From: a virus
Lineage: Duplodnaviria > Caudoviricetes
Reading direction: 5' to 3' (one strand)
Virus record (IMG/VR): IMGVR_UViG_3300035070_003584
Location: 1 to 64,000 of that record
Length of the DNA stretch: 64,000 nt
Numbering within the stretch: position 1 is the first letter of the stretch; every line of letters starts with the position of its first letter. Both the position numbers and the translations under genes were made by a program. This document shows positions 35,609 to 60,320 of the stretch, piece after piece. The notes below the pieces were generated by a model, which saw only the letters and a list, made by a program, of their open reading frames with translations, searched no databases and was not told the DNA's origin.

Positions 35609-36562
35609 ATGTTAAATCCAAAATATCCAATTTATATTATTTCGAAAGGCCGTTGGGATTCTAGACAGACCCAACGGACACTCGAAGAACTAAATGTACC
35701 TTACCGTATTGTGATCGAAGAATCAGAATATGATAAGTATGCAGAAAATGTTCCAGAAAAAAAGATCCTCACGTTACCTACAGATTTTCGTGAGAATCCA
35801 CTCTATGCTATTCCAGATGAAACTACTGGCTTTATCGGTGGTTCTATTCCGGTCCGTAACTTTGTTTGGGAACATTCCAAATCTGAAGGTCACGCTCGGC
35901 ACTGGATCCTAGATGATAATATGAGACACATTTATCGGTTAAATCGTAACCTTAAAACTCGTATGCAATCCGGTTCGTCATTTGGTATCATAGAGCAATT
36001 TGTTGACCGATATGAAAATGTCAGATTGGCTGGTATGAACTATGCATTCTTTGCTCCTGCCACAGTAAAGAAACCACCATATTATACCAATACTAGAATT
36101 TACTCTTGTATCCTAATTGACAATTCACTTAAACATCGGTGGCGTGGCAGATACAACGAGGATACCGATTTGTCATTGCGTGTGCTCAAGGATGGTGATT
36201 GTACCATGTTGTTCAACAACTTTCTGGTTGGTAAGGCAGCAACAATGACAATGAAGGGTGGTAATACCGAAACCGTCTATAACATTGATGAAACCGGCGA
36301 TCGCAATAAACGTGGTGGTAATGAATTTGATAATCGTAAAGAGTTTGCCGAATCACTTATTGCCCAACATCCGGATGTTGTCAGACTTGCATTTAAATGG
36401 GGTCGTTACCACCATGATGTTAACTATTCAGTGTTTGTTCAAAAGCCAGTGAAAAAAGAAGGTCTAAATATTCCACGTGGACTAAATGAACACGGATTGG
36501 TTTTAAAGCCAATATCGCCAGAAGATCACAGTGATGAAGGAGAAGAAAATTATGGCGACTAA
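35609..36562 (+). CDS. GT-A fold glycosyltransferase (TET-associated/GREB1-like, DNA base glycosyltransferase type)
   Basis: YPIYIISKGR, RNF.WEH, W.LDDN, RIYSC, RGRYNEDTD, KGGNT. Confidence 0.75.
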   Translation: MLNPKYPIYIISKGRWDSRQTQRTLEELNVPYRIVIEESEYDKYAENVPEKKILTLPTDFRENPLYAIPDETTGFIGGSIPVRNFVWEHSKSEGHARHWILDDNMRHIYRLNRNLKTRMQSGSSFGIIEQFVDRYENVRLAGMNYAFFAPATVKKPPYYTNTRIYSCILIDNSLKHRWRGRYNEDTDLSLRVLKDGDCTMLFNNFLVGKAATMTMKGGNTETVYNIDETGDRNKRGGNEFDNRKEFAESLIAQHPDVVRLAFKWGRYHHDVNYSVFVQKPVKKEGLNIPRGLNEHGLVLKPISPEDHSDEGEENYGD

Positions 36563-38369: not shown

Positions 38370-39194
38370 ATGAAAAATATTGCAATTATTGGACACGGCT
38401 ATGTTGGTAAGGCCGTTGAATATGGATTCCAAACTCAATGGGTGAAACAGACACTTATTGATCCAGCACTCTATGGCAACAGCCTAAGTGATCTACGAGG
38501 TACACGAGTTGATGTCGCATTTGTTTGTGTACCTACTCCTATGGGTGAGGATGGTTCTATTAACTCATCTATTGTAGAACAAACTGTAAGAGATTTATCT
38601 GCAATTACAACTGGACTCATTGTTATTAAATCAACTGTTGTACCAAGTGTTGTTGCAGAATTGTCTGAGTCCAATCCGCAGGTAATTTATAACCCTGAAT
38701 TCCTTACAGAAAAAAATGCACTAGATGATTTTATTAATCCACCAATGCATGTGTTTGGTGGTGAAAAAGGTGCCACTGCAAAACTAGAAGAGATTTATAA
38801 GGAACATTCTCGGTGTAAACCATGTCAAGCATATCACATGACTGCAATGGAAGCATCATTTGTAAAATATGGAATTAATTCATTCCTTGCAACCAAGGTA
38901 TTGTGGATGAACCAGTTCCAAGATCTTTGTGATAATTGGCATGCCAAATATAATGTTGTTGCAAATGCAATTGGTTCGGATGCCAGAATTGGTCACAGTC
39001 ATATGCAAGTGCCTGGTCCGGATGGTCGTAAAGGCTACGGTGGGGCATGTTTTCCCAAGGACACAAAAGCCTTTTCACATTTTGCCGAAGGTCAGCTTAC
39101 AGTCTTAGATGCAGTCATCGAAGAAAATAACATATATCGTGCTATGTATGAGTTGGATGATCGCGAGAAAGAACAAAATGTTGTTTACATTTAA
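38370..39194 (+). CDS. ugd: UDP-glucose 6-dehydrogenase family protein
   Basis: GHGYVG, CVPTP, KSTV, NPEFL, GYGGACFPKD. Confidence 0.9.
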   Translation: MKNIAIIGHGYVGKAVEYGFQTQWVKQTLIDPALYGNSLSDLRGTRVDVAFVCVPTPMGEDGSINSSIVEQTVRDLSAITTGLIVIKSTVVPSVVAELSESNPQVIYNPEFLTEKNALDDFINPPMHVFGGEKGATAKLEEIYKEHSRCKPCQAYHMTAMEASFVKYGINSFLATKVLWMNQFQDLCDNWHAKYNVVANAIGSDARIGHSHMQVPGPDGRKGYGGACFPKDTKAFSHFAEGQLTVLDAVIEENNIYRAMYELDDREKEQNVVYI

Positions 39195-39212: not shown

Positions 39213-39236
39213 ATACTATATTATTTGGAGGAATAT

Positions 39237-40193
39237 ATGGCTAAAATTGCAATTACAGGTCTGGCCGGCTTTATCGGCTCGACACTAGCACATAAACTAC
39301 ATGCCGATGGTCATCACGTTATCGGCTTTGATAATTTTAATGATTATTATGATCCGGAACTTAAAAAAGCTCGTGCCGCAAAACTCATTGATGATTGTGG
39401 TGTTGTTGTTGAAAAAGTTGATCTAAATGATGCCGAAAATCTAAAAGATTGGATGTACCATAAACGGCCAGACATTGTAATGCATTTGGCAGCCTATGCC
39501 GGTGTTCGCCATTCCATGGTTGAACCAGGAAAATATATCGATAACAATGTTGTTGGTACTCATAGCCTTATTGAGGCTTGTTGGAATGCCGGCGTCACTA
39601 AGGCTGTGTATGCATCAACATCATGTGTAATGGCTGGTAACAAATTACCATGGACAGAAGATGAAAAACTTGGTTATCAATTAAATCCATATGGTTATAC
39701 CAAGGCTACTAATGAGTCACAGTTTATGGCGTCAGCTATCCCATCTACAGTGGGCCTTAGATTCTTTACAGTCTATGGTCCGTGGGGTCGGCCTGACATG
39801 GCTTTGTTTGATTTTACCAAAAATATCATTGCTGGTAATGAAATTGAACTATTTAATTATGGTGATATGATCCGTGACTTTACATATGTAGATGATATTG
39901 TCCAAGGTATTAGTATTATTCTAGAAAAAACCTTGGCCGAGGACCATGCTAAACAGATATATAATATTGGCAATGGCAGACAAGTTCAACTTATGGAATT
40001 TGTTGAGAACATTGAAAAACAACTTGGTCGTACGGCAAATAAAAAACTTGTACCAAAACACCCAGCAGATACTCAGGCCACATGGTCAGATTGTACTAAA
40101 CTTAAGGCATTAGGTTATAGTCCAGAAACATCTATCGAAAAAGGTGTTGAAAATTTTGTCACTTGGTATAAATCTTATTATGGAGTAAATTAA
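39237..40193 (+). CDS. UDP-glucuronate 4-epimerase-like NAD-dependent epimerase
   Basis: GLAGFIG, NDYYDP.LK.AR, HLAA.AGVR, YxxxK, LRFFTVYGPWGRPDMA. Confidence 0.9.
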   Translation: MAKIAITGLAGFIGSTLAHKLHADGHHVIGFDNFNDYYDPELKKARAAKLIDDCGVVVEKVDLNDAENLKDWMYHKRPDIVMHLAAYAGVRHSMVEPGKYIDNNVVGTHSLIEACWNAGVTKAVYASTSCVMAGNKLPWTEDEKLGYQLNPYGYTKATNESQFMASAIPSTVGLRFFTVYGPWGRPDMALFDFTKNIIAGNEIELFNYGDMIRDFTYVDDIVQGISIILEKTLAEDHAKQIYNIGNGRQVQLMEFVENIEKQLGRTANKKLVPKHPADTQATWSDCTKLKALGYSPETSIEKGVENFVTWYKSYYGVN

Positions 40194-47855: not shown

Positions 47856-48062
47856 TTACTTAGTTAACATACCAGCTGGGAGTGTTCTGCATTCCCAGCT
47901 TCTTGGTTTGTATCCCTTCATATGTATATGCACATCTTCGGCCATTTGCAATGCACGGGCCTTACACACACGCTCAGATTCGTATGGTCCACGTTGATCT
48001 TCTAGCATAATGCAATAGTTTGGATTGCTCATCAGGCATGCATATACAATTGCTTGTATCAT
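47856..48062 (-). CDS. Small Cys-containing protein
   Basis: MIQAIVYACL...C...GPY.....C..R; coupled to the upstream ORF. Confidence 0.55.
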   Translation of the reverse strand: MIQAIVYACLMSNPNYCIMLEDQRGPYESERVCKARALQMAEDVHIHMKGYKPRSWECRTLPAGMLTK

Positions 48063-48541
48063 CAAACTGCCGTATACATTACAAAAATAAGTGCGGCGCC
48101 ACCAAGGATGACACATCCACCAATAATCATCATCATCTTAATCATTTCCCAGAACTCTTCATCTTCTTTTCTCTTTTGAATTCTGGCCAGTCTTTGCGCC
48201 TCTTTTGCTTCTACTATTCTTTTTTGTCTTTCATCCAAAATCTTTTGCCAAGTTCCTGGACCAAACCGCATATCAATTAGATTGCGCATCTCTTGCATCT
48301 TCTCTTCTGCAAGTTTGGCGTCAATCATTTCTTGGGCAACTGATTGGATACCGAACTGATCTTTCAGTCCCATACCGGATTTTTTGCCTCTTTTCTTCTG
48401 TACCTCTTCGGTACCTTTGAACATACCATCAATTGCACCAGCAATTTCACCAATGTCTTTTGCGGTGTCAATATTTGATTTTATAAATTCTACACTTGCC
48501 TTTACAAGTGCAATTCCTGCTAAAATTTCTGCTACAGGCAT
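48062..48541 (-). CDS. Membrane-anchored coiled-coil protein
   Basis: C-terminal TM segment; downstream of a minus-strand TATAAATA. Confidence 0.65.
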   Translation of the reverse strand: MPVAEILAGIALVKASVEFIKSNIDTAKDIGEIAGAIDGMFKGTEEVQKKRGKKSGMGLKDQFGIQSVAQEMIDAKLAEEKMQEMRNLIDMRFGPGTWQKILDERQKRIVEAKEAQRLARIQKRKEDEEFWEMIKMMMIIGGCVILGGAALIFVMYTAV

Positions 48542-48618: not shown

Positions 48619-48660
48619 TTTACAAACGTATCTAGATGTGTTATAATATTAATATAAATA
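48619..48660 (+). promoter_or_regulatory. Tandem sigma70 and late promoters of the tmRNA gene
   Basis: TTTACA(48619)-N17-TATAAT(48642) followed by TATAAATA (48653-48660). Confidence 0.75.
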
Positions 48661-48664
48661 AAAA

Positions 48665-48726
48665 TGATTCGGTGAAACTGGATGGATGTAGGCTGGACGT
48701 GGGGGCAGTACCCACCGCCTCCACCA
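48665..48726 (+). ncRNA. ssrA: Two-piece (permuted) tmRNA, acceptor piece
   Basis: T-arm GTGGG-GGCAGTA-CCCAC with alphaproteobacterial T-loop; acceptor strand CGCCTCC-A-CCA; 5' end approximate. Confidence 0.92.
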
Positions 48727-48746
48727 TAAACACACTAGAGGTAAAT

Positions 48747-48872
48747 ATGTTAGAAGCATTTGCAAATTGGGTATCAAAGTTTATTAAAGTTAAACCACAA
48801 CCAGGATATCTTGGTAGGGATATGGCAAAACACAGAGTCCATAGTGTAAAATATGAAGACCTTTGCAAGTGA
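48747..48872 (+). CDS. Small protein (41 aa) inside the tmRNA intervening segment
   Basis: GAGGT RBS and ATG; GTGA overlap with the next ORF. Confidence 0.65.
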   Translation: MLEAFANWVSKFIKVKPQPGYLGRDMAKHRVHSVKYEDLCK

Positions 48873-49102
48873 AAATAACACCAGAGAATACACCAAACAA
48901 ATATGTAAGGTGGTTTTGTTGGTTCATACAATTTAAATACGTATGGGACATTCAAACCTTATTTGAAAAATATCTTCCTATGGAGAAAGTGTATAGATTC
49001 CTAGGGTTTTATTTATTTTGGTTTATTTGGTTTTGTACACTATTACTTGTCTTATACAAGATTACTGGTAGTATGGAATTTCTTCTCTGGTTTGATGAAT
49101 AG
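48869..49102 (+). CDS. Small membrane protein (77 aa) inside the tmRNA intervening segment
   Basis: GTG start coupled to the previous stop; aromatic-rich TM segment. Confidence 0.6.
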   Translation: MKITPENTPNKYVRWFCWFIQFKYVWDIQTLFEKYLPMEKVYRFLGFYLFWFIWFCTLLLVLYKITGSMEFLLWFDE

Positions 49103-49114
49103 TGTGCTTATGAT

Positions 49115-49256
49115 GGGGGCGAAATAGGATCGACAGATGCAAGAAGGCAGTGGAGAATCACAAACGTAAATGCAAACGATAACTTTGCTCCTGAGATGCG
49201 CCTAGCGGCATAATCTCTGGGCTGGCAACTTGCCTTGAAACAGAAAAGTTGCAACT
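49115..49256 (+). ncRNA. ssrA: Two-piece (permuted) tmRNA, coding piece; tag ANDNFAPEMRLAA
   Basis: GGGGGCGAAATAGGATCGAC 5' end giving G3:U70; tag frame 49172-49213; terminal pseudoknot with AACAGAA; 3' end approximate. Confidence 0.93.
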
Positions 49257-49273
49257 TACCCAAGGAGGGTGCT

Positions 49274-49612
49274 ATGAAATACTACCTAATAATGTTCCTT
49301 ATGCTATTTGCAACATCTGCATTTGCTGAAGTAGAAACTCGTTCAAAACCAGTTCAATGTGGAGGTATAGAAGGTCTTCTTACTATCATTGATCAAGCAG
49401 AAGAAAAGGCTTTACTTGGCGCTTTAGGTGAAGTCACAATGCCTGATATGACTAAACAAATCTTGCCAATCTATGTGTTTGCAAATACAGATACAGGCAC
49501 ATTTACTATCTTTGAAATGCATCCCGACAGTAATGAAGTTTGCTTAATTGGTTATGGTACTAGTATTGATTTTAATGTACAGGGATATTTTGAACCTAAA
49601 ACAAATAGTTAA
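49274..49612 (+). CDS. Secreted/periplasmic hypothetical protein
   Basis: Signal peptide MKYYLIMFLMLFATSAFA; GGAGG RBS. Confidence 0.7.
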   Translation: MKYYLIMFLMLFATSAFAEVETRSKPVQCGGIEGLLTIIDQAEEKALLGALGEVTMPDMTKQILPIYVFANTDTGTFTIFEMHPDSNEVCLIGYGTSIDFNVQGYFEPKTNS

Positions 49613-51096
49613 TGAATCACTGCTTAATTATGAACATCGAGGAACGAAGTCACACACGTTCTTTAGGCCCATATAGAATAGCTCATTGGCTAAGGGATAA
49701 TGGGTGGGATACTGAGGTAATAGACTATTGCGCTCATTGGTCACATGACGAGTTAATGGAGTTATGTTTATCTCGAATTAATGATAATACGCGATTCATA
49801 GGATTTTCATCCTTATTTACTGGATGGACAAATCATATGGAAATATTTTCACTTTTTCTTAAGAAACATTATCCAAATATAGTACAAATTTCCGGTTCAT
49901 CTAGTCTTCCAAATGCGGATATGTCAGCAGTTGATTATCACATATATGGGTTTGGTGAAAAGGCTTTAGATGTTTTACTTAAATATCTATTCTCAAATGG
50001 TGAGGCACCCCGAGCGACAAATTATTTTAATACACAATTAATTGATGCATCTCATTATCCAGCATATCCACTTAAGGAATATACTGTTCTCTATGAAGAA
50101 AGAGATTATCTTCAACCATGGGAATTTCTTTCAATTGAAACCGGCAGAGGCTGTAAATTTAAATGTAGTTTCTGTAACTTTTCAGTACTTGGTGTAAAGG
50201 GAGATTATAGCACTTCACAAGATAGTTTTGAAAAACAATTAAATGAAAACTATGATAGATGGGGTATTAAAAACTATGTGATTGCCGAAGAGACATTCAA
50301 TGACCGTACAGAAAAAGTTGAAAAATTTAGCCAAGTAGTACAAAGATTGAATTTTGAACCATGGTTTGCTGCATATATTAGAGCTGATTTACTTATATCT
50401 AGAAAGCATGAAGTAGAACATTTGGCTAATATGAATGTATTCGGCCAATTTTATGGAGTTGAATCTTTTAACCAAAAAACCTCTAAAGCCATTAAAAAAG
50501 GCATGGACCGAGGTAAAATGAAAGAAGGTCTTCTTAAAGTAAAAGAATATTTTGAGAAAAACAATAATAGATATCGAGGCAATATATCTCTTATTGTAGG
50601 CGCGCCATATGAAACAAAGGAATCTTTATATAGTTCTCTCGATTGGCTAGTTGATAACTGGAAGACCCAAAGCTTTACTGCATATCCTCTTGGAATCCCA
50701 ATTTATGGAAGACAATCTATATTAAGTGGTTCTTATGGTGAAAACGAATATGAAGAAATATCAGCAGAAGAATTGTATCAAAAGCATGATAAAACATATG
50801 TCGATAAAGTATTAAAAAAGAATAACATTATAAAAGACAATAAAATACTTGAAAAAAAATGGCTAATGTGGAAAAATAAACAAATGGATGTTGTTGAAGC
50901 ATTTAAAATACATGATCATATGTGTGATGTAATGCGAAAAGAGAAATTTAAAAAATCCACATTTGCTGTAGCAGAATTTAGTGGTAAAGAATCTACTATT
51001 GATGATAAATTAAAATTGGATGTAAATGCTGTAAAAACATTTAGAGATGAAGAATTGCAATGGGTTGAGGAATATAAAAAAAAGAAATTATCATGA
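49612..51096 (+). CDS. B12-binding-domain radical SAM enzyme
   Basis: N-terminal G.YRIA..LR..G..VID and GFGE; ETGRGCKFKCSFC (CxxxCxxC); GVES. Confidence 0.88.
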   Translation: MNHCLIMNIEERSHTRSLGPYRIAHWLRDNGWDTEVIDYCAHWSHDELMELCLSRINDNTRFIGFSSLFTGWTNHMEIFSLFLKKHYPNIVQISGSSSLPNADMSAVDYHIYGFGEKALDVLLKYLFSNGEAPRATNYFNTQLIDASHYPAYPLKEYTVLYEERDYLQPWEFLSIETGRGCKFKCSFCNFSVLGVKGDYSTSQDSFEKQLNENYDRWGIKNYVIAEETFNDRTEKVEKFSQVVQRLNFEPWFAAYIRADLLISRKHEVEHLANMNVFGQFYGVESFNQKTSKAIKKGMDRGKMKEGLLKVKEYFEKNNNRYRGNISLIVGAPYETKESLYSSLDWLVDNWKTQSFTAYPLGIPIYGRQSILSGSYGENEYEEISAEELYQKHDKTYVDKVLKKNNIIKDNKILEKKWLMWKNKQMDVVEAFKIHDHMCDVMRKEKFKKSTFAVAEFSGKESTIDDKLKLDVNAVKTFRDEELQWVEEYKKKKLS

Positions 51097-51665
51097 TACA
51101 TTATTTACCTATTAACATACCTAGATTACCACCAATTAAATATGATGGAATGAGAACTAGTCATTATGCATGGTGGAGCATGATTAAGATAACAGAAGAG
51201 ACTGAAAATCGTTATGATGATTCTGTTATTAAGCCTGAATTTCTAGAAATGAATCCACATTTTAAACAGTGGTTAAAACATCTTCCTATAAAAAGATTAA
51301 TCAATATCAAATTGCATATGCAAGATAGAAAAGCAGATCCGCATATTGATTTCAATAAACCAAATGAAAATTTGGATTTATATAGAGTAACTCGAGCAAA
51401 TGAACCTTGTGGTTATAGAGTTGTTATAAATGGTTCTAATAAAAATTGTATGTATGTTATAGATAATAATGGTAATAAAATTTATACAGAATTGCCGACT
51501 GAAACAAATACGTATGCAATAAATCATACTCAATGTATACATGGTACAACGGATGATATTGATAGATGTATTATGTTCTTTCAGTTTGAGGTAGATTCTC
51601 AAAAACATACTCAATTAATTAATCAAAGTGCATTGGTATTTAAGAATTATGTTATTTCTATATAG
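51093..51665 (+). CDS. Fe(II)/2OG dioxygenase-like protein
   Basis: PHID...HG...R pattern (HxD..H). Confidence 0.55.
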   Translation: MIHYLPINIPRLPPIKYDGMRTSHYAWWSMIKITEETENRYDDSVIKPEFLEMNPHFKQWLKHLPIKRLINIKLHMQDRKADPHIDFNKPNENLDLYRVTRANEPCGYRVVINGSNKNCMYVIDNNGNKIYTELPTETNTYAINHTQCIHGTTDDIDRCIMFFQFEVDSQKHTQLINQSALVFKNYVISI

Positions 51666-52236
51666 TTATATTTTATATTATATCTTAGCTTCAATTGGTA
51701 TTACTTTTGGATATCATAGATATTTTTCTCATAAAGAATTTAATGCCCCAAAATGGCTAGAATTTATTTTTTTATATTGTGGTTTATTATGCGGTGGTAG
51801 ATCTGCATTAACATGGTCAGCCGTACATAGAATGCATCACGCTTATTCAGATACACCAAATGATCCACACTCACCAAAATATAAACGATGGTATGAAATA
51901 CTTCTTTCACTTTGGAAGGTAAAAAAAATACCGAGAAGGTTTTGTAAAGACTTACTTAATAACAAATTAGTAATGCATTTTCATAATGATGGCTGGAAAT
52001 ATATGTTCCTTACATATTTTTTTGCTCTTATGATAGGATGGCAATATCTAGTAATGTTTATTTTCGTCTTTATTTTATCATATATTTCGTTTGGTCTTTT
52101 AAATTATCTAGGACATAATAATAACGGGCCTATAAATAATATTATAATCAATATATTTGCACCATTTGAAGGAAATCATAAAGATCATCATGAAAAATCT
52201 AAGAAGAAGATATCTGCCAAACTTCGCAACTCTTAA
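51649..52236 (+). CDS. Membrane fatty acid desaturase-like protein
   Basis: His boxes HRYFSH, HRMHH, HKDHH; DPHSP; TM segments. Confidence 0.88.
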   Translation: MLFLYSYILYYILASIGITFGYHRYFSHKEFNAPKWLEFIFLYCGLLCGGRSALTWSAVHRMHHAYSDTPNDPHSPKYKRWYEILLSLWKVKKIPRRFCKDLLNNKLVMHFHNDGWKYMFLTYFFALMIGWQYLVMFIFVFILSYISFGLLNYLGHNNNGPINNIIINIFAPFEGNHKDHHEKSKKKISAKLRNS

Positions 52237-52933
52237 TAGCGAATATAATTTTGACGTAGAAAAATTAAAAGAATCTTATTTTTATAGTATTAATAAAAAC
52301 AAAGATGAAGGTATGAACCATCATTTTACTATTAATGATGTTGAAAATAAGGATAAGAAAAAATTTTATAACACAGACGAATCTGGTTATGAACAAGTAA
52401 ATCTTACTTCTTATAATGAAGTTGATACATCGGATGGATATGAAAAATCACAGTGGCAGTGGTGGAATTCTAGAAAAGATTTAACACTAGCAGAACGCAA
52501 ATCATTCTATCGAAGAGCATTACAAAATAAATTAGATGGTTTGGAATCAACTCTAGAAACATCTTATGCAAAGATGAATGCATTATCTGATGGTTATATG
52601 AAAGATATTCTTCAACAATTTAAAGGTAAGGTAACTCGAGTAAGATGGGCAGTTGCAAATCCCGGCATGGAAATGCAACCACATTTGGATTATGATACAA
52701 CATATGCTGTAAGATTCCATTATCCCATTATTACAAACCCGGATGCAATTATCTGCGTTGATCGTCATAATGAGGGTGTTCAAAAAATTCACATGCCGGC
52801 AGACGGTAGGGTATTTTTTATCAATCAGGGGTTTAAGCACTGGATTGAAAATAATGGAGATACACCTAGAGTTCATTTAATTGTAACTGTCGTTGGTCAA
52901 GAAGATATGGTAGAATGCTCTCCTATTCTTTAA
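52190..52933 (+). CDS. Asp/Asn beta-hydroxylase-like Fe(II)/2OG dioxygenase
   Basis: PHLD, RFHYPIITN, H..EN.....RVHLI. Confidence 0.78.
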   Translation: MKNLRRRYLPNFATLNSEYNFDVEKLKESYFYSINKNKDEGMNHHFTINDVENKDKKKFYNTDESGYEQVNLTSYNEVDTSDGYEKSQWQWWNSRKDLTLAERKSFYRRALQNKLDGLESTLETSYAKMNALSDGYMKDILQQFKGKVTRVRWAVANPGMEMQPHLDYDTTYAVRFHYPIITNPDAIICVDRHNEGVQKIHMPADGRVFFINQGFKHWIENNGDTPRVHLIVTVVGQEDMVECSPIL

Positions 52934-53673
52934 AATTAAAACTAATTTGGCTAATAGCAATGTGTATAAGTGCATATTGGTTGATGACTACTACAATGCC
53001 ATGGTGGTTGATATTATTGGTGTTTTATGCCTCTGTTTTTATTGCAAGAGTTGGTGGTGAAATAAGCTATCATAGATATTTTACCCATAGAGCATTTAAA
53101 ACTAGTAAAATTATGCATAATATATTATTATGGTGGGGATCTTTATTAGGTGTTGGAAGTTGTATATCATGGTCTTGTATGCATAGAGCACATCATGCAA
53201 CTGCAGATACTGATGATGATCCACACAGTCCACATAAAATTGGCATTTTAAAAACTTTCTTATTATCACCGGATACCTCAAAGCTTACATTTAAGAATGT
53301 TGGAGATTTATTCAAAGATCCAATGCAAAAGTTTATTCATAAAAATTATTTTAAAATCATATTTATCTGGATCGTTTCACTTGGTATAATAACACAATGG
53401 TCAATGTTACCTTTGGTTTTATTTTTTGCACTACCAGTTTCTTTTTTATGGATTATGTCTGGCATTACAAACTGTTTTGGGCATATGCTGGGTTATAGAA
53501 ACTTTGAAACAAAAGATCATAGTACTAATCACCATTTAACTAGATGGTTATTATTAAATGTCGGTTTACATAATAATCATCATTATAAACCTACAGCAAT
53601 AGATCATAATCTAAATAAAAAATGGTATGAATTTGACTTAGAAAGTTATTTTATAAAAATTATAAAATCATGA
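52915..53673 (+). CDS. Membrane fatty acid desaturase-like protein
   Basis: His boxes HRYFTH, HRAHH, HNNHH; DPHSP. Confidence 0.9.
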   Translation: MLSYSLKLKLIWLIAMCISAYWLMTTTMPWWLILLVFYASVFIARVGGEISYHRYFTHRAFKTSKIMHNILLWWGSLLGVGSCISWSCMHRAHHATADTDDDPHSPHKIGILKTFLLSPDTSKLTFKNVGDLFKDPMQKFIHKNYFKIIFIWIVSLGIITQWSMLPLVLFFALPVSFLWIMSGITNCFGHMLGYRNFETKDHSTNHHLTRWLLLNVGLHNNHHYKPTAIDHNLNKKWYEFDLESYFIKIIKS

Positions 53674-54224
53674 TTACAACACATCATATATCAGATGCGC
53701 CTCTTATGGAAGTAAAAACTTGGATAAGAAATAATGCGCATGGTAAACATTCTGAAAACTATAGGAATATTGAGCTTAATAGTGATCATAAAGCCATATC
53801 AATTGAAAGGTATGATGGAAAAAATATTACCTGTGTTTCCACCATATACAATAGAGATTATTATCCAGAAAGCTGTGTAAGAATTTTTAATAAATGGCTA
53901 GCAATCCGTAAAATTGGTGGAACAAAAAAGAATATATTATCTGACAGAGCAATTCAAATGGCAACTCAGCAGATTCATTTTTCGGAAATGATGGGATATA
54001 CTTCATTCTTTATTTCATATCATAGTTACATTCCAAAATTTTGTAATGAATTGACTAAAAGGTTAAATGAAAAAACAGAATGGAATTGGAATCACGAAGA
54101 ATTAGTAAGAGTTGCTCCTGGAGATAATAAGAAATGTTATCAACATGTAATTTATGCCGGTGAAGGAATAGAAAAACTTATAAATAGAAAAATGGATATA
54201 CAAACTTGGAGATCATTGTGCTAA
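53670..54224 (+). CDS. Hypothetical protein (possible GNAT-like fold)
   Basis: Coupled within the island; fold guess is weak. Confidence 0.45.
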   Translation: MITTHHISDAPLMEVKTWIRNNAHGKHSENYRNIELNSDHKAISIERYDGKNITCVSTIYNRDYYPESCVRIFNKWLAIRKIGGTKKNILSDRAIQMATQQIHFSEMMGYTSFFISYHSYIPKFCNELTKRLNEKTEWNWNHEELVRVAPGDNKKCYQHVIYAGEGIEKLINRKMDIQTWRSLC

Positions 54225-54844
54225 AATTATTTGAAAACTTAGACTTTTCTGAGTCCATTTCAATCACAAAAGAATTACCGGCATATAAAAAGATTGCAAC
54301 AGATCTACCGGTTACAGAACTACTTGCTGAAATGAATTTCTTTTGTACAGAAGAAAACAAATATCCGGATAATTCTCCATGGTTTAGTGTATACGGGCCA
54401 GACGTAACTATGAGTCGAGCTGATTTAGCATCTATAGGTTTATTACACTATTATCAGCAATGGCAGATGACAGAAAAACAAATTGAAACTCCATGGCAAA
54501 ATTGGAGAGCAGGCATTGGTGCTTCTACAAAAACTATTTTTGAAACACAATTATCAAGTTTTCATAGACCTAGATATGTAGAAGTAGGTCCTGGTTGGGA
54601 AGTAACCAATCACAAAGATTGGACAGATAATAATAAATTAGGTCTAAGATGTCATTTGATTCTCGAGACGAATGATCAATGCATGCATTATGTTACGGAT
54701 GATGCCGGTATAGAACATGAATTACATTTTGTTCCTGGTGATGTATGGTTTTATGATATTTCTAGAATGCACAGAGCACATAATCTAGGTACCACAATTC
54801 GTAAGAGTATCAGTTTTGAATTATTTAATGATGATCTTCTTTAA
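54206..54844 (+). CDS. Asp/Asn beta-hydroxylase-like Fe(II)/2OG dioxygenase
   Basis: HKD, RCHL.LETN, HRAHN.....R. Confidence 0.72.
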   Translation: MEIIVLKLFENLDFSESISITKELPAYKKIATDLPVTELLAEMNFFCTEENKYPDNSPWFSVYGPDVTMSRADLASIGLLHYYQQWQMTEKQIETPWQNWRAGIGASTKTIFETQLSSFHRPRYVEVGPGWEVTNHKDWTDNNKLGLRCHLILETNDQCMHYVTDDAGIEHELHFVPGDVWFYDISRMHRAHNLGTTIRKSISFELFNDDLL

Positions 54845-55277
54845 CACATCCTACAATATGTATTCTTTCATCATCTGATGCATTAATTGCTGTATGGATT
54901 TTAGTAGTATCTACTAGATACCAATTGCCATCGGCTGGATATCTATAAACTTTATCATCAATAATAAACATACATTTATCATTTGTAATAAGTGGTATAT
55001 GAATTCTTTTAGTTAAATCATAATGATAACTATAACAAACTCTAGGTTTCATTCTCATTAATCTAGTTCTATACATACCAAGTTTTTTAATAATAGAATT
55101 TGTATATGGTATATCAAAAAGAGGATAGATAAATTCTTCTTCATTATGATTTAATTCTAAAACCTTACCAACACCATAAAATGGATCACCATTAGGCTCA
55201 ACACCTTGCAATGATATTTGAGTTTGTTCTGGTACTAATTCCAATTCCAGTAAAATTCTATCTACATCGATGGACAT
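54825..55277 (-). CDS. Asp/Asn beta-hydroxylase-like Fe(II)/2OG dioxygenase
   Basis: HYD, RIHIPLITN, HTAIN.....RIHIV. Confidence 0.78.
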   Translation of the reverse strand: MSIDVDRILLELELVPEQTQISLQGVEPNGDPFYGVGKVLELNHNEEEFIYPLFDIPYTNSIIKKLGMYRTRLMRMKPRVCYSYHYDLTKRIHIPLITNDKCMFIIDDKVYRYPADGNWYLVDTTKIHTAINASDDERIHIVGCVKEDHH

Positions 55278-55702
55278 ATAGTTAACTCTTTTACTCTATA
55301 AGGTTGGTAGATAACCCAATCAATCACTTCTGCCACATATTCCAAAGGTAATTTAGGCTTATCTACATGAGCAGATCTTTCTGTATCAAAGTAACCAAAA
55401 TTTAAAATGGTGGTATTTATACCCTGCCAAAATAATTGATCGTTCACCTTACGAAGAGTGTGTTTCTCAATTCCATAACGAAAATTATCTTTATAACCTT
55501 TTGTCCAGTCTGAGGCAGCACTTCCTATATTAATAATTCTTTTATTAAGCTTTGCTGCTTTGTAGAGTAATTCTACTTGCTCAAAACCATCGTGTTTACA
55601 GTTAATAAAGATGTCACTTTCCTTCAGTGAAGAGACTGTCGGGTAAGTGTCGCTCAACAATTTCCCAAGACCCCTTCTCGTACCAGTGATATAAAACTTC
55701 AT
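55262..55702 (-). CDS. Compact short-chain dehydrogenase/reductase
   Basis: ITGTRRGLG, INIGS, YxxxK. Confidence 0.75.
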   Translation of the reverse strand: MKFYITGTRRGLGKLLSDTYPTVSSLKESDIFINCKHDGFEQVELLYKAAKLNKRIINIGSAASDWTKGYKDNFRYGIEKHTLRKVNDQLFWQGINTTILNFGYFDTERSAHVDKPKLPLEYVAEVIDWVIYQPYRVKELTICPSM

Positions 55703-56240
55703 AATATGATTTAATCTCTTCTATATTGGTAAAATATTCTTCATAATTTATATATTTCGAAAATTTTATAAGTGAAGTTTTCCATTCTATATCTTCATAA
55801 TATATAGTGTCATAGTTAAAATCATCTAACCAATATTGCCAAGTCAGAAATAATTTAAGCGTATTTTTGTAGTTAATAGCTTCTTTTGGTGTTTTATCAA
55901 TCTTAAGTGGATTTTCACACCAAGTAAGTTTCCATTTATTCTCGTGCTGATATAAATGACTGAGGTATTGATTCCATAGATTTCTTCTCTTTAGAATATA
56001 GATTTCTTCAAATTTATAAAAATTTTGAAACCAATTTATATGTTTTTTAATCTGATGCACGTGTACTTTATAACAATATTCATTACCTAATTTTCTTTCA
56101 CTTTCTAGAAACTCAATAGGATTATTATTATGTAGAAATGGCTCTTCATGTGAGGTGTGCAGTAATTGAGATTCTTTTCTTAGCCATTTTATGGCACAAG
56201 TTGAACCAGATCGAGGTGTACACAATATGATTTTTTTCAT
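55614..56240 (-). CDS. Sulfotransferase-like protein (Stf0-type)
   Basis: TPRSGST 5'-PAPS loop; L.RRN...QYLS 3'-motif; YED. Confidence 0.72.
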   Translation of the reverse strand: MKKIILCTPRSGSTCAIKWLRKESQLLHTSHEEPFLHNNNPIEFLESERKLGNEYCYKVHVHQIKKHINWFQNFYKFEEIYILKRRNLWNQYLSHLYQHENKWKLTWCENPLKIDKTPKEAINYKNTLKLFLTWQYWLDDFNYDTIYYEDIEWKTSLIKFSKYINYEEYFTNIEEIKSYYEVLYHWYEKGSWEIVERHLPDSLFTEGK

Positions 56241-56272
56241 AGATGTACCATTACCTCAAACATAACTCTATT

Positions 56273-56301
56273 ATTATACCATAGTACATCGTACATGTAA
56301 A
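56273..56301 (-). promoter_or_regulatory. Sigma70-type promoter for the minus-strand sulfotransferase unit
   Basis: Reverse complement TTTACA-N17-TATAAT. Confidence 0.75.
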
Positions 56302-56316
56302 CAAAAAAAAGTTTAA

Positions 56317-56390
56317 ATAAAACGAAATTAGTTGTTTACAGCGCCGTTTTTTTGTGATATAATATATGTATAATCAAAAAGGAAGAGGAG
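56317..56390 (+). promoter_or_regulatory. Early promoter/leader cassette (copy 3)
   Basis: ATAAAACGAAATTAGTTGTTTACA-N17-TATAAT...ATAATCAAAAAGGAAGAGGAG. Confidence 0.87.
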
Positions 56391-56397
56391 TTCTATT

Positions 56398-56547
56398 ATG
56401 ATTAAATGCTTTATTATTACCGCAGTTCTTAATACTGGGGAAATTTGGGAAACAGTTCGTCATACCAAGGATGGCTTAACTGATTACATTCAAAATATCC
56501 TTTCTGATGAGGCTGTAATTAAATTTACAGTTGAGGAGCGTGTATAA
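56398..56547 (+). CDS. Early small protein (49 aa)
   Basis: Strong RBS after an early promoter. Confidence 0.6.
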   Translation: MIKCFIITAVLNTGEIWETVRHTKDGLTDYIQNILSDEAVIKFTVEERV

Positions 56548-56632
56548 TGAAAAAATTTGAATTTATTGCTGGTATATTGTTTATTGTTGTAATGTCATCA
56601 TTACCAATTCTAATGTTTATATAGGAGATTAC

Positions 56633-56809
56633 ATGATTGAATTTGAATTTCAGAACCCGGATCAAAATGATATTTGGAGAGAGATTATTGAGTTTTGTAT
56701 GTCTCAACCAGAAAACACATCACCAGCTGCCTTACAATACTTGGTAGCTAAGGAACTTGGTTATATTGCAAGTAAAACAGCTTGTGCTCTGGCAGCAATT
56801 AGATTTTAG
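56633..56809 (+). CDS. Early small protein (58 aa)
   Basis: AGGAG RBS. Confidence 0.55.
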   Translation: MIEFEFQNPDQNDIWREIIEFCMSQPENTSPAALQYLVAKELGYIASKTACALAAIRF

Positions 56810-56818
56810 GAGGTTTAT

Positions 56819-57019
56819 ATGGGAATGTCAAATTATGTTTTGGATCAAGAAGAAAAAATGTTTGATGTTATTGAACAGGCAATTATAACCTGTGATCATC
56901 TCACAGAGGTAATGCAAGAAGCTGTTAAGAATAAGTCTCTTGTACCACATTGGACTGTACAAGAAATTGAAGATGCCTGTAGTGAATATTGGGAAGAGTA
57001 TTGGGCGAGTAAAATATAA
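56819..57019 (+). CDS. Early small acidic protein
   Basis: AGGAGG RBS. Confidence 0.65.
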   Translation: MGMSNYVLDQEEKMFDVIEQAIITCDHLTEVMQEAVKNKSLVPHWTVQEIEDACSEYWEEYWASKI

Positions 57020-57908: not shown

Positions 57909-58865
57909 ATGGCACATATGGTAGAAACAATGGCTTATGCCGGTCAGGTTCCATGGCATGGATTAGGTGTTCCTGTCTCTAATGATTTGACACCAGTTCA
58001 GATGATGCAAAAAGCTGAACTAGATTGGAAAGTCCGTGAAGTGGAATCATTTATTGAGTTCGATGGTAAAAAAATGCCAACCGGACAAAAATCATTGGTA
58101 CGCGAAACCGATGGTAAAATTTTAACAAATGTTGGTGAGAATTGGAAATCTGTTCAGAACGAACAGGCCTTTGAATTCTTTCATGAGTATGTGATGGCAG
58201 GTGATATGGAAATGCACACTGCAGGTTCACTCAAGGGTGGTCAGATGGTCTGGGCTCTAGCCAAGATTAATTCTTCCATGGATTTCTTTAAGGGTGATCA
58301 GGTAGATTCATATCTGCTCTTTTCTAATCCTCACCAATATGGTAAGACGATTGACATTCGTTTTACACCAATCCGTGTTGTGTGTAATAATACACTGACA
58401 CTTTCACTAGACCAAAAGACAGAACAATCAGTTCGTGTTGGCCATAGAGTAGAGTTTGATGCATCAACTGTCAAACGTGCTCTTGGCATTGCTAGTGAGA
58501 AAATGGGTGTATATGGTGAAATGGCTAAATTCCTTGGTAACAAGAGATTTACTGAGGATTCATATATCGAATACCTTAATACGGTATTTCCCCGTACTTC
58601 CGATAAGCGTGTACAGGACAAGCAGTTATCAGCTGAAACCCTATCACGTAACGCCAAGTTGGCCTATGATGTCCTTGACACACAGCCAGGCGCGGAATAT
58701 GCTCGTGGTACGTGGTGGCAGGCATTTAACTCTGTCACATATATTACAGATCATGTTCAAGGTCGGAATGCCGATAATCGCCTTTATTCATCATGGTTCG
58801 GTGGTAATCAATTACGGAAACGTGATGCACTCCAAACCGCAATTGAATTTGCAGAGGCGGCGTAA
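57909..58865 (+). CDS. DUF932 family phage/plasmid-like protein
   Basis: MAH.VETMAYAG..PWHGLG, TAGSL.GG..VW, TPIRVVCNNTL, GT.W.A.N.VT. Confidence 0.85.
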   Translation: MAHMVETMAYAGQVPWHGLGVPVSNDLTPVQMMQKAELDWKVREVESFIEFDGKKMPTGQKSLVRETDGKILTNVGENWKSVQNEQAFEFFHEYVMAGDMEMHTAGSLKGGQMVWALAKINSSMDFFKGDQVDSYLLFSNPHQYGKTIDIRFTPIRVVCNNTLTLSLDQKTEQSVRVGHRVEFDASTVKRALGIASEKMGVYGEMAKFLGNKRFTEDSYIEYLNTVFPRTSDKRVQDKQLSAETLSRNAKLAYDVLDTQPGAEYARGTWWQAFNSVTYITDHVQGRNADNRLYSSWFGGNQLRKRDALQTAIEFAEAA

Positions 58866-59417: not shown

Positions 59418-60320
59418 ATGAAAAAATTAATCTTTACACTAGCTCTTGTACTAGCGTCCTCAAATGCGCATGCAAGAGACACAATCACTTCGGTCGGTTC
59501 ATCGACTGTATATCCATTCACAACTATTGCTGCTGAAAAGTTTGCTCAGAGCACAGGTAGTAGAATTATTGTGGAATCAACCGGTACCGGTGGAGGAATG
59601 AAACTCTTCTGTAATGGTATTGGAATTGAACACCCAGATATGACTGGCGCATCACGTGCTATTAAAGATAAAGAAGCAAAAATGTGTGCCAAGAATAATG
59701 TAACATTTGACGAAGTAAAGATTGGTTTTGATGGTATCACCATTTCAAATTCAAATGAAGCACCAAAAGCAGCATTTACCAAACAACAACTCTTTAAAGC
59801 AGTATCAGACCCAAATATGAAGATGTGGTCTGATATTGATCCATCATTACCAAACAAAGAAATTTCTATTATGGTTCCTCCTCCAACCTCAGGAACAAGA
59901 GATGCATTTGTCGAACTTGTAATGCATGGTGCCTGTAAGGAAATGGGAATGTCAAAGAAGGAATATAAAGCAAAATGTTCTTCATTCCGTGAAGACGGTC
60001 AGGTAATTGTAATGGGTGAAAACGACAATTTGATTGTTGAAAAACTTGTTGCAGATCCTGACATGTTTGGTGTATTTGGATTCTCTTTCCTTGATCAGAA
60101 TCTAGATAAGGTACATGGTGCAACTGTAAATGGTGTAGCTCCTACATTTGAAACCATTGCAGATGGATCATATAAAGTCTCACGCCCACTTTATGTTTAC
60201 TTTAAGAAAGAACATATGGGTGTAATTCCTGGATTGGCAGAGTTTAAATCTTTCTATATTGATTTAGCAGCAGATCCAACCTCACAACTTGCTGAGGCTG
60301 GTCTGATTCCACTTAAATAA
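59418..60320 (+). CDS. pstS: Phosphate ABC transporter substrate-binding protein
   Basis: Signal peptide; GSSTVYP, ESTGTGGG.K.FC, ASR.IK, SGTRD.F, Y.VSRPLY.Y. Confidence 0.95.
   Translation: MKKLIFTLALVLASSNAHARDTITSVGSSTVYPFTTIAAEKFAQSTGSRIIVESTGTGGGMKLFCNGIGIEHPDMTGASRAIKDKEAKMCAKNNVTFDEVKIGFDGITISNSNEAPKAAFTKQQLFKAVSDPNMKMWSDIDPSLPNKEISIMVPPPTSGTRDAFVELVMHGACKEMGMSKKEYKAKCSSFREDGQVIVMGENDNLIVEKLVADPDMFGVFGFSFLDQNLDKVHGATVNGVAPTFETIADGSYKVSRPLYVYFKKEHMGVIPGLAEFKSFYIDLAADPTSQLAEAGLIPLK

Follow-up and report, generated by a model that had tools for sequence, protein, structure and literature searches.

A ten-gene block of predicted oxygenases, desaturases and a radical SAM enzyme occupies a hypervariable slot beside a viral tmRNA gene

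Results

A ten-gene block fills a hypervariable accessory slot

We found that a block of ten overlapping genes (positions 49612-56240) in a 64,000-nucleotide stretch of the virus record IMGVR_UViG_3300035070_003584 (IMG/VR; Duplodnaviria, Caudoviricetes) fills a hypervariable accessory slot of 2.0-9.4 kb between a transfer-messenger RNA (tmRNA) gene and a DUF932 gene. We refer to the whole stretch as the window; it comprises the first 64 kb of a 93-kb record with a completeness rating of ~55 %. Marine T4-like phages that infect SAR11-type hosts rank among the most abundant viruses of the sea, and oxygenases of unknown purpose are numerous in their variable regions. The block is very probably an accessory (auxiliary-metabolic-type) mosaic cassette in a lytic T4-like phage, and it is most likely made up of small modules that are shuffled among related phages, not a fixed pathway. 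As for its role, we tentatively propose that it alters molecules already present in the host, with acyl lipids of the envelope as the most likely target.

The ten open reading frames (ORFs) and their arrangement in two convergent units, seven genes on the + strand and three on the - strand, were present exactly where an initial annotation of the sequence had placed them:

49612-51096, + strand: g1, 494 aa, predicted class-B (cobalamin-domain) radical S-adenosylmethionine (SAM) enzyme, CxxxCxxC at C181/C185/C188
51093-51665, + strand: g2, putative divergent AspH-like cupin, HxD...H...R, dN/dS 0.08
51628-52236, + strand: g3, minimal predicted membrane desaturase, 202 aa, His boxes HRYFSH, HRMHH and HKDHH
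52157-52933, + strand: g4, predicted AspH-family Fe/2-oxoglutarate (2OG) oxygenase with an N-terminal extension of ~130 aa, PF05118 E 3.9e-10
52915-53673, + strand: g5, predicted SCD/DesA (delta-9) type membrane desaturase, 252 aa, His boxes HRYFTH, HRAHH and HNNHH
53670-54224, + strand: g6, soluble protein with a possible GNAT (acyl-CoA N-acyltransferase) fold
54206-54844, + strand: g7, predicted AspH-family Fe/2OG oxygenase, PF05118 E 2.1e-6
54825-55277, - strand: g8, predicted small soluble AspH-family beta-hydroxylase, PF05118 E 6.3e-11
55262-55702, - strand: g9, putative minimal short-chain dehydrogenase/reductase (SDR), 146 aa, TGxxxGxG, Ser and YxxxK read from the sequence
55614-56240, - strand: g10, putative sulfotransferase of the 3'-phosphoadenosine-5'-phosphosulfate (PAPS) type, PRSGS loop and R85/S94 second motif

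Neighboring block genes overlap by 4-89 nt at their junctions, and the tails of the two convergent units share 20 nt. The AT-richness claimed for the block was borne out: its GC content is 0.305, compared to 0.372 +/- 0.0175 (minimum 0.342) in 177 equal-sized other windows, or 3.8 standard deviations lower. The same drop occurs in the relative L003 (island 0.312, compared to 0.368 and 0.373). Near-identical DNA was present in public sequencing runs of 11 studies, with half or more of the sampled words recovered in 12 runs, and contig pieces spanned the block in all four runs examined, from four studies; the block is therefore real and no assembly oddity. Relative to L003, dN/dS is 0.05-0.17 for all ten block ORFs and 0.05-0.13 for the flanking genes, values that are rough because synonymous divergence (dS ~1-2.5) is near saturation. 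All ten ORFs are under purifying selection, and the divergence of the block from L003 equals that of its flanks.

Deposited phages offered few relatives. A blastn search with positions 49200-57000 gave no match among them, the PHROG families matched almost none of the block genes, and of g1, g6, g7 and g10, those queried had no tblastn match or close relative among 50,697 deposited phage records. The tblastn matches of g3, g5 and g8 came essentially from Pelagibacter phage Mosig (MT647606) alone.

Slot content was compared in 160 loci, retrieved through either the 159-aa gene at the left flank (48062-48541) or the DUF932 gene at the right flank (57909-58865), with some contigs retrieved twice. 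Both flanks were present in 22 loci, with gaps of 2,042-8,963 nt compared to 9,367 nt in the window. Several loci lacked block genes, one held ~9 kb of other cargo and others carried subsets. Removal of near-identical loci left 111 groups, many of them on short contigs, in which we counted a desaturase in 15, an AspH gene in 16, a g2-type gene in 6, an SDR in 5, a radical SAM gene in 2, and a sulfotransferase and a g6 homolog in 1 each. Where at least 4 kb upstream of the DUF932 gene was available (42 groups), the g8-type AspH occurred in 12, the desaturase in 10, the g4-type in 8, the g2-type in 5, the SDR in 3, and the sulfotransferase and radical SAM genes in 1 each.

The full ten-gene order recurred only in L003 (= L155), at 60-91 % amino-acid identity. 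L002 (= L151) follows the same order as far as its short contig reaches and ends inside the block. Smaller combinations were more widespread: among the 111 groups, desaturase and AspH genes were adjacent in 4, AspH and SDR genes in 4, and desaturase and g2-type genes in 3 (examples are L236, L235, L282/L283, L255/L256 and L145), and an AspH or g2-type gene was co-present in 10 of the 15 desaturase-bearing groups. In Mosig, an Asp_Arg_Hydrox gene (Mosig_00081) is directly followed by an FA_desaturase gene (Mosig_00080) within a larger enzyme island beside the tail fibers. The block can thus be laid out as four modules: two pairs of an AspH-like protein and a delta-9-type desaturase (g2-g3 and g4-g5); a GNAT-like protein with an AspH protein (g6-g7); a Cpz10-like AspH protein, a mini-SDR and a sulfotransferase-like protein on the opposite strand (g8-g9-g10); and the class-B radical SAM gene g1, whose family occurs almost only in viral contigs.

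The initial annotation had suggested that the set may act together on one substrate, to be doubted if its genes reassort independently among relatives. The conservation search came out between the two. The ten-gene unit recurs in a single other lineage, and the counts in the 42 groups come close to independent reassortment; yet the desaturase-AspH and AspH-SDR pairs recur, and the order is held between the block and L003 at a dS of ~1 or more.

The block encodes predicted membrane desaturases and soluble AspH-type oxygenases

The family calls of the initial annotation stood to different degrees: firmly for the radical SAM enzyme, the two desaturases and three of the AspH oxygenases, moderately for the fourth AspH-like protein, the SDR and the sulfotransferase, and weakly for the acyltransferase, which is GNAT-like.

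We firmly assign g3 and g5 as predicted SCD/DesA-type membrane desaturases. Both match FA_desaturase (PF00487) above the cut-off, with E values of 3.5e-11 and 1e-16 (the latter for g5), both keep all three His boxes, and they are the only block proteins with hydrophobic membrane segments. For g5, the DesA_fam model gave E 4.7e-30 and the SCD1 structure 4ymk E 8.6e-6, and two hydrophobic regions are each wide enough for two helices; as a yardstick we took the full desaturase architecture of four membrane helices and ~270 aa or more. The NCBIfam DesA model scored the two proteins at 105 and 40 bits, compared to a cut-off of 400. The g3 protein is 36 % identical to the FA_desaturase of Mosig. Recent capture of the desaturases from an alphaproteobacterial host was not supported, with matches in 26 of 401 sampled genomes, a sample that may contain few SAR11; every match was in a longer ORF and none exceeded 32 % identity.

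The predicted AspH-family assignments of g4, g7 and g8, which all exceed the Asp_Arg_Hydrox gathering score, are firm. The g7 protein aligned to g4 and g8 at 99.9 % (hhalign), and the HxD...H...R pattern could be read in all four proteins. The assignment of g2 as AspH-like is moderate: a Pfam search gave no match, and its alignment to the g4 profile (hhalign probability 83 %, E 9e-6) is accompanied by the same HxD...H...R spacing. The closest solved relative of g8 is Cpz10 (7v4f; E 3.9e-20 over residues 14-142), which also matched g4 (E 3.8e-5). Cpz10 hydroxylates the amino-acyl moiety of a nucleoside antibiotic precursor (PMC9814697). The same Fe/2OG family includes the lipid hydroxylases LpxO, OlsC and OlsD, which act on the acyl chains of lipid A or ornithine lipids (PMC12971839). 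When g8 was compared to the LpxO-type model NF033391, the match was 24 bits against a cut-off of 500 (55 residues, E 1.8e-5), and g8 has no hydrophobic segment. We also considered OlsB/OlsC/OlsE analogs acting specifically on ornithine lipids and rejected them, as the His-box proteins are of the SCD type and not the OlsE type, and OlsB is reported absent from Pelagibacterales (PMC12971839).

A PstS gene lies ~3 kb downstream of the block (59418-60320), and in Mosig a PstS gene is directly followed by a g8-type AspH gene (L303 5821-7405; 33 % identity), which hints at an ancestral PstS-AspH neighborhood.

The remaining soluble proteins are more divergent

The sulfotransferase-like assignment of g10 is moderate, with both the predicted fold and the loop motifs in agreement. 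In 14 sequences, the PRSGS loop has R10, G12 and S13 without exception, and P9, S11 and R85 are each conserved in at least 90 %; S94 is invariant, and R85 and S94 match the 3'-phosphate motif (R...S). A structural model (pLDDT 87.3) compared by VIA-align had sulfotransferases as all of its top 12 among 48,161 chains (Z 9.4-7.6; 155-174 of 208 residues covered). Pfam Sulfotransfer_3 matched only at E 0.013, and Foldseek returned nothing at E 0.001 or below for the model, with P-loop kinases and sulfotransferases mixed. The 89-nt overlap of g10 and g9 in different frames (55614-55702) is kept in L003 (16015-16103); because several g10 homologs end ~20-25 residues earlier, the overlap comes from a C-terminal extension of g10.

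Typical SDRs are ~250 aa long, compared to 146 aa for g9, a putative mini-SDR whose family call is moderate; the NCBIfam SDR model matched weakly (E 1.1e-3, 18.5 bits compared to a cut-off of 249). The weakest family call is g6. Searches against Pfam and the PDB gave no meaningful sequence match, even with a 14-sequence profile, and the GNAT-like suggestion comes from the structural resemblance of an ESM-Atlas model to GNAT clusters (TM score 0.59-0.72). The GNAT acyl-CoA motif is R/QxxGxG/A, which an RKIGGT stretch in g6 resembles. One g6 homolog adjoins a desaturase gene in L032.

Directly upstream of the block, its stop touching the start of g1, lies one further small gene:

49235-49612, + strand: g0, small protein, likely ATG start at 49274

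Its N-terminal hydrophobic stretch resembles a signal peptide when read by eye. We observed g0 in 20 of the 111 groups, mostly without a radical SAM gene, and with a dN/dS of 0.40. It is a semi-conserved backbone gene that is not specific to the block, and this spread and fast evolution rule it out as a precursor peptide.

Among the ORFs scanned in the window and the remaining 29 kb of the record, we observed no polyketide synthase (PKS), nonribosomal peptide synthetase (NRPS) or acyl carrier protein (ACP) domain. Likewise, the ORFs scanned in the ten genes, their flanks and the rest of the record included no gene for making a core scaffold (PKS, NRPS, precursor peptide, terpene or sugar synthase). 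The absence of PKS, NRPS and ACP noted in the initial annotation was thus confirmed within this scope.

The radical SAM gene belongs to a large, almost exclusively viral family

The assignment of g1 as a radical SAM enzyme is firm; it is predicted to be of class B and is a putative cobalamin binder. It matches Radical_SAM (PF04055, E 3.5e-13) above the cut-off, and C181, C185 and C188 are invariant in 32 homologs. The B12-binding domain PF02310 matched only at E 0.0045, its 17.2 bits lying below the cut-off of 32.1. An AlphaFold2 model (pLDDT 88.9) has as its nearest structures the cobalamin-dependent enzymes MgmA, TokK, CysS, OxsB and TsrM (Foldseek E 2e-14 to 5e-11, TM score 0.51-0.59, 400-500 aligned columns). 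Against curated NCBIfam models, none came near its cut-off (best 53 bits, compared to 360-600), and a sequence search against the PDB gave no match.

The family is large and nearly absent from cellular genomes. At least 591 viral loci carry it in IMG/VR (591 of 610 pattern matches confirmed by profile), and a search of 5.8 billion proteins returned 608 relatives. In one genome each of 185,579 cellular species, we counted 61 loci, of which only two exceeded 30 % identity (both 40 %). These two sit on 22-25 kb contigs of metagenome-assembled genomes, where neighboring genes match PHROG families (QueC-like, dCMP deaminase and 2OG oxygenase); the contigs may be prophages or mis-binned phage contigs.

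We examined the neighborhoods of the best 79 of the at least 591 viral loci together with the window, which formed 57 non-redundant groups. AspH-superfamily genes were present in 28 of these, with up to six per locus, other radical SAM genes in 25, mini-SDR-like genes in 17 and desaturases in 8. Seven of the eight desaturase-bearing groups also carried an AspH gene (Fisher p 0.025, uncorrected for relatedness). Frequent neighbors encode SPASM and MJ0619-like radical SAM proteins, TauD, tryptophan halogenase, Sulfotransfer_2, APS-kinase-like and QueC-like proteins and an epimerase.

Contigs L073 (1-21346), L024 (1-12805) and L023 (1-21125) carry g1-family islands composed almost wholly of enzymes, given as 20 kb or more. 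They include two tandem class-B radical SAM genes, several SPASM and MJ0619-like radical SAM genes, QueC-like proteins and up to six AspH-like paralogs in a row.

Each unit of the block lies behind an early-type promoter

The borders of the block carry the following features:

48619-48647, + strand: early-type promoter motif with TG, ahead of the tmRNA, the sole exact copy upstream of the + unit
48668-49213, + strand: permuted (two-piece) phage tmRNA (Rfam RF04321, 64.5 bits, gathering score 47), the conserved left border of the variable slot
56273-56301, - strand: early-type promoter motif facing g10-g9-g8, the only minus-strand copy in the window
56335-56363, + strand: early-type promoter motif facing small downstream ORFs and away from the block, the right border of the island

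The sequence TTTACA-N17-TATAAT occurs in 14 exact copies in the window, compared to 0.07 expected. All lie within 24266-57874, 13 of them on the + strand, most with TG before the -10 element and most directly upstream of replication-module genes. We infer that this is the early promoter consensus of the phage. A general sigma-70-like scan of the window was not above chance (57 found, 61 expected); only the exact consensus is enriched. The back-to-back promoters noted earlier at the end of the block are exact copies of it (56273-56301 and 56335-56363). As the only copies facing the two units are those at 48619 (+) and 56301 (-), each unit lies behind an early-type promoter and the block is probably expressed early, the + unit probably being read through the tmRNA from the promoter at 48619-48647. 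A terminator scan gave no terminator between the convergent units.

The tmRNA neighbor of the block was confirmed by Rfam; ARAGORN, unlike Rfam, did not find it in the window. An alpha-type permuted tmRNA lies beside the same flanking gene in all ten relatives scanned, and two-piece tmRNAs are described for phage Melnitz and the pelagimyophages (PMC9004378). The match spans 546 nt, compared to ~190-430 nt in most relatives (L143 also has 546 nt), and contigs from four of four metagenome runs join ~48734 to ~49102, skipping ~365-385 nt. From these two observations we conclude that the phage carries an extra segment of ~367 nt inside the permuted tmRNA gene, which overlaps a 78-aa ORF (48636-48872).

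The record represents a predicted T4-like phage with further accessory genes

Structural PHROG matches in the window comprise head-tail adaptor, head closure, terminase, sheath, tube, portal, prohead protease, scaffold and major head protein. Replication matches comprise Dda-like and DnaB-like helicases, SbcCD, sliding clamp and loader, gp43-type polymerase, primase, UvsX and thymidylate synthase. All PHROG-named structural and replication genes of the window are on the + strand. The major head protein is 68.8 % identical to that of phage C48C1, 61.5 % to Pelagibacter phage HTVC008M and 60.8 % to OM43 phage Melnitz. On the basis of this gene set and these identities, we assign the replicon by sequence as a lytic T4-like phage of the pelagimyophage/Melnitz group. 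Judging from the relatives and from the alpha-type tmRNA, the host is probably alphaproteobacterial, e.g. SAR11.

Several other accessory genes were observed. Inside the replication module, the gene for a TET-associated glycosyltransferase (PF20691, E 2.8e-45) has in its vicinity a truncated gene resembling UDP-glucose dehydrogenase and a nucleotide-sugar epimerase gene, a neighborhood that may be a DNA base glycosylation system:

35609-36562, 38370-39194 and 39225-40193 of the window: sugar-gene group of the replication module

The record ends with a second accessory block (record 83002-89135):

L309 4002-10135: GT8, NAD-dependent epimerase/dehydratase, FkbM-type methyltransferase and two GT25 'LPS biosynthesis' glycosyltransferases

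Three large proteins carry seven FG-GAP_2 repeats each (E 1e-82 to 5e-107), one of them together with Ig-like and cadherin-like domains; these proteins may act at the virion surface or in adhesion:

1-1488 and 19620-21635 of the window, and L308 7299-9056: FG-GAP_2 repeat proteins

A ribonucleotide reductase (RNR)-like ORF of 739 aa has a weak, sub-cut-off match to the insertion domain of B12-dependent class II RNR (E 1.9e-5) and is followed by a SegE-type GIY-YIG homing endonuclease gene. If the RNR truly belongs to class II, it would be a second cobalamin-dependent enzyme in the phage.

L308 9913-12132 and 12400-12828 (record 73913-76828): RNR-like ORF and SegE-type gene

Discussion

Possible roles of the block

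Our data place the block as an accessory cassette, and we tentatively regard the remodeling of pre-existing host molecules as the best overall explanation for it. The enzymes would act on molecules already in the infected cell, because no PKS, NRPS or ACP was found among the ORFs scanned in the record and g0 is not block-specific. The desaturases would put double bonds into existing acyl chains and the Fe/2OG enzymes coupled to them would hydroxylate; subsequently the SDR could oxidize, the sulfotransferase sulfate, the GNAT-like protein acylate and the radical SAM enzyme methylate. The outcome would be altered membrane or outer-membrane properties during infection, e.g. in fluidity or in surface masking against other phages. 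Alteration of the host surface has also been proposed for pelagimyophages (PMC7029224).

Host envelope acyl lipids are a possible but uncertain target. We rank them first because the desaturases name the only substrate class, are coupled to AspH genes and recur in that pairing in diverged phages. The ranking also draws on the lipid-acting AspH relatives LpxO, OlsC and OlsD (PMC12971839), on the cyanophage desaturase precedent (PMC5776448) and on the LPS-type glycosyltransferases (GT8 and GT25) in the record. That all ten enzymes share one substrate is improbable, and such a substrate is unproven because the ten genes travel together in one lineage only.

Several further observations weigh against the lipid proposal. 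The four AspH-like proteins all lack membrane segments, and since g8 is nearest to the soluble Cpz10 and its LpxO match is marginal, soluble substrates are favored for these enzymes. A class-B radical SAM enzyme, a GNAT, an SDR and a sulfotransferase are equally typical of natural-product or peptide tailoring. With only two hydrophobic segments in 202 aa, g3 may not be a complete desaturase. The timing of expression may not be purely early, as two TATAAATA motifs lie 19-20 nt ahead of the g4 and g7 starts, a motif that shows no enrichment in the window (15 found, 9.5 expected). No RNA run was listed among 24 public runs, and the host itself is inferred.

The strongest competing explanation, which we consider unlikely although less so than those that follow, is that the slot gathers individually useful oxygenases and transferases with different targets, and that their proximity reflects the mechanics of a recombination hot spot. 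The unequal gene frequencies among the 42 backbone relatives (from 1 for the radical SAM and sulfotransferase genes to 12 for the g8-type AspH), a slot size of 2.0-9.4 kb and the alternative cargo are in line with such an unlinked set. The radical SAM family likewise occurs in many unrelated contexts, directly adjacent to an AspH gene in only 5 of 57 loci, the g8-type AspH stands alone beside PstS in Mosig, and AspH is core to pelagimyophages (PMC7029224). However, start and stop codons overlap throughout the block, the desaturase-AspH and AspH-SDR pairs recur adjacent in diverged phages, and the whole order is kept relative to L003 at a dS of ~1 or more with dN/dS of 0.17 or less.

Somewhat less probable still is the tailoring of a small molecule without a scaffold, in which the soluble enzymes would convert an abundant host metabolite (an amino acid, nucleotide or osmolyte derivative) and the desaturases would work separately. 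The resemblance of g8 to the Cpz10 beta-hydroxylase (PMC9814697) is consistent with this, as are the structural neighbors of g1, which are the natural-product methylases TokK, CysS and TsrM, plus OxsB. Sister radical SAM loci hold SPASM radical SAM, TauD, tryptophan halogenase, Sulfotransfer_2 and APS-kinase-like genes, and Iyer et al. suggested secondary-metabolite roles for cyanophage dioxygenase arrays (PMC2938197). On the other hand, we found no scaffold, carrier, ligase or export gene in the 93-kb record, a lytic phage has little time to profit from a metabolite, and desaturases translationally coupled to AspH genes fit poorly.

The founding members of PF05118 hydroxylate Asp or Asn in proteins, and hydroxylation, methylation and sulfation could in principle be directed at a phage structural protein (tail fiber, collagen-like or FG-GAP), a host protein or a ribosomal peptide. 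We consider this quite improbable. The comparable enzyme island of Mosig abuts tail-fiber genes and the small protein g0 is encoded directly upstream of g1; moreover, Iyer et al. proposed that beta-hydroxylase and sulfotransferase neighborhoods act on tail-collar or collagen-like proteins (PMC2938197). However, g0 is fast-evolving and in nearly all cases lacks the radical SAM gene as a partner, and the block has no intergenic space or short ORF for a precursor. The block, preceded by early-type promoters, is moreover located in the early/replication region at a great distance from the structural genes, and membrane desaturases play no part in such chemistry.

An integrative island or prophage remnant at a tmRNA attachment site, as the initial annotation implied in calling tmRNA loci common insertion sites, would account for the position of the block directly downstream of the tmRNA and for its deviant GC content, but is already contradicted: the tmRNA is a conserved gene of a T4-like lytic phage and is whole in all ten relatives tested, the scanned ORFs included no integrase, and the block has diverged from L003 as much as its flanks have, so the insertion-site logic of bacterial islands does not apply. 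Comparison of the flank genes shows that the stretch downstream of the tmRNA is nevertheless a hypervariable slot.

Returning to envelope remodeling, a broader and rather speculative proposal, to which we give a low probability, is that the g1 family anchors a widespread, reassorting class of scaffold-less phage tailoring cassettes that rewrite a component of the host envelope during lytic infection. Such cassettes are rich in AspH-type cupins (up to six per locus), SPASM radical SAM enzymes, halogenases, sulfotransferases and desaturases. If the proposal holds, host acyl lipids would here be desaturated, hydroxylated and then sulfated or methylated, e.g. to exclude competing phages, which would make this a general strategy new to phages as well as a new source of B12-dependent lipid chemistry. 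The lipid interpretation, if true, would extend phage control of host membrane chemistry from cyanophages to phages of heterotrophs and to new reaction types. Three features provide a starting point. The desaturase-AspH pair, also present in the cultured Mosig, is open to direct testing; the very large, almost virus-confined radical SAM family with a cobalamin-type domain is a second handle; and the defined hypervariable slot next to the tmRNA makes cargo turnover traceable in metagenomes.

Comparison with known systems

Among single enzymes, g8 shares with Cpz10 of the caprazamycin pathway (PDB 7V4F, PMC9814697) the small soluble AspH-family cupin form with a conserved HxD...H and C-terminal Arg; Cpz10 acts inside a full Streptomyces nucleoside-antibiotic cluster, whereas the block holds none such. 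The lipid 2-hydroxylases LpxO, OlsC and OlsD share PF05118 with g4, g7 and g8 (PMC12971839), but the match to the LpxO model is weak and the phage AspH proteins have no membrane segments. DesC-like desaturases of cyanophages (vFAD; Roitman et al. 2018, PMC5776448), interpreted as remodeling the host membrane, are also phage-borne, of the delta-9 type and equipped with three His boxes. In comparison, g3 and g5, at 202 and 252 aa, are much shorter, form two paralogous types and are coupled to AspH genes. With TokK, CysS, TsrM, MgmA and OxsB, g1 shares the predicted three-domain architecture and the CxxxCxxC motif at 12-17 % sequence identity, and its family, unlike these enzymes, is almost confined to viral contigs.

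At the level of gene arrays, cyanophage Syn9 has ten tandem dioxygenases, and neighborhoods combining beta-hydroxylase and sulfotransferase genes have been described (Iyer et al. 2010, PMC2938197). The block and Syn9-type arrays share a T4-like marine phage, many small Fe/2OG oxygenases side by side and the lack of a scaffold gene; related neighborhoods include sulfotransferase, acetyltransferase and halogenase partners (PMC2938197). In contrast to the mixed classical 2OGFeDO/JmjC set of Syn9, the oxygenases of the block are all of the predicted AspH (PF05118) type, are interleaved with membrane desaturases and are joined by a class-B radical SAM enzyme. Host groups differ too, being cyanobacterial for Syn9 and probably alphaproteobacterial for the block.

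Pelagimyophages have hypervariable regions, radical SAM cassettes and a core AspH gene (Zaragoza-Solas et al. 2020, PMC7029224). Together with Mosig they belong to the same phage group as the virus analyzed here (capsid 59-62 % identical) and share a variable region between the replication and structural modules; Mosig also shares the adjacent AspH and FA_desaturase genes. Unlike the block, the Mosig island lies beside tail fibers and holds MoaA-like radical SAM enzymes, aminotransferases and a carbamoyltransferase.

In a literature search that left subscription journals and bioRxiv supplements outside its scope, we found no description of the g1 radical SAM family, of the cassette, or of its composition, pairs and tmRNA slot. 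In conclusion, the kind of system is already in print as the tandem dioxygenase and radical SAM cassettes of marine myophages (PMC2938197, PMC7029224). What is new is the composition of the block, the recurrent desaturase-AspH and AspH-SDR pairs, the slot beside the phage tmRNA, and a class-B radical SAM family of such size that is nearly restricted to viruses.

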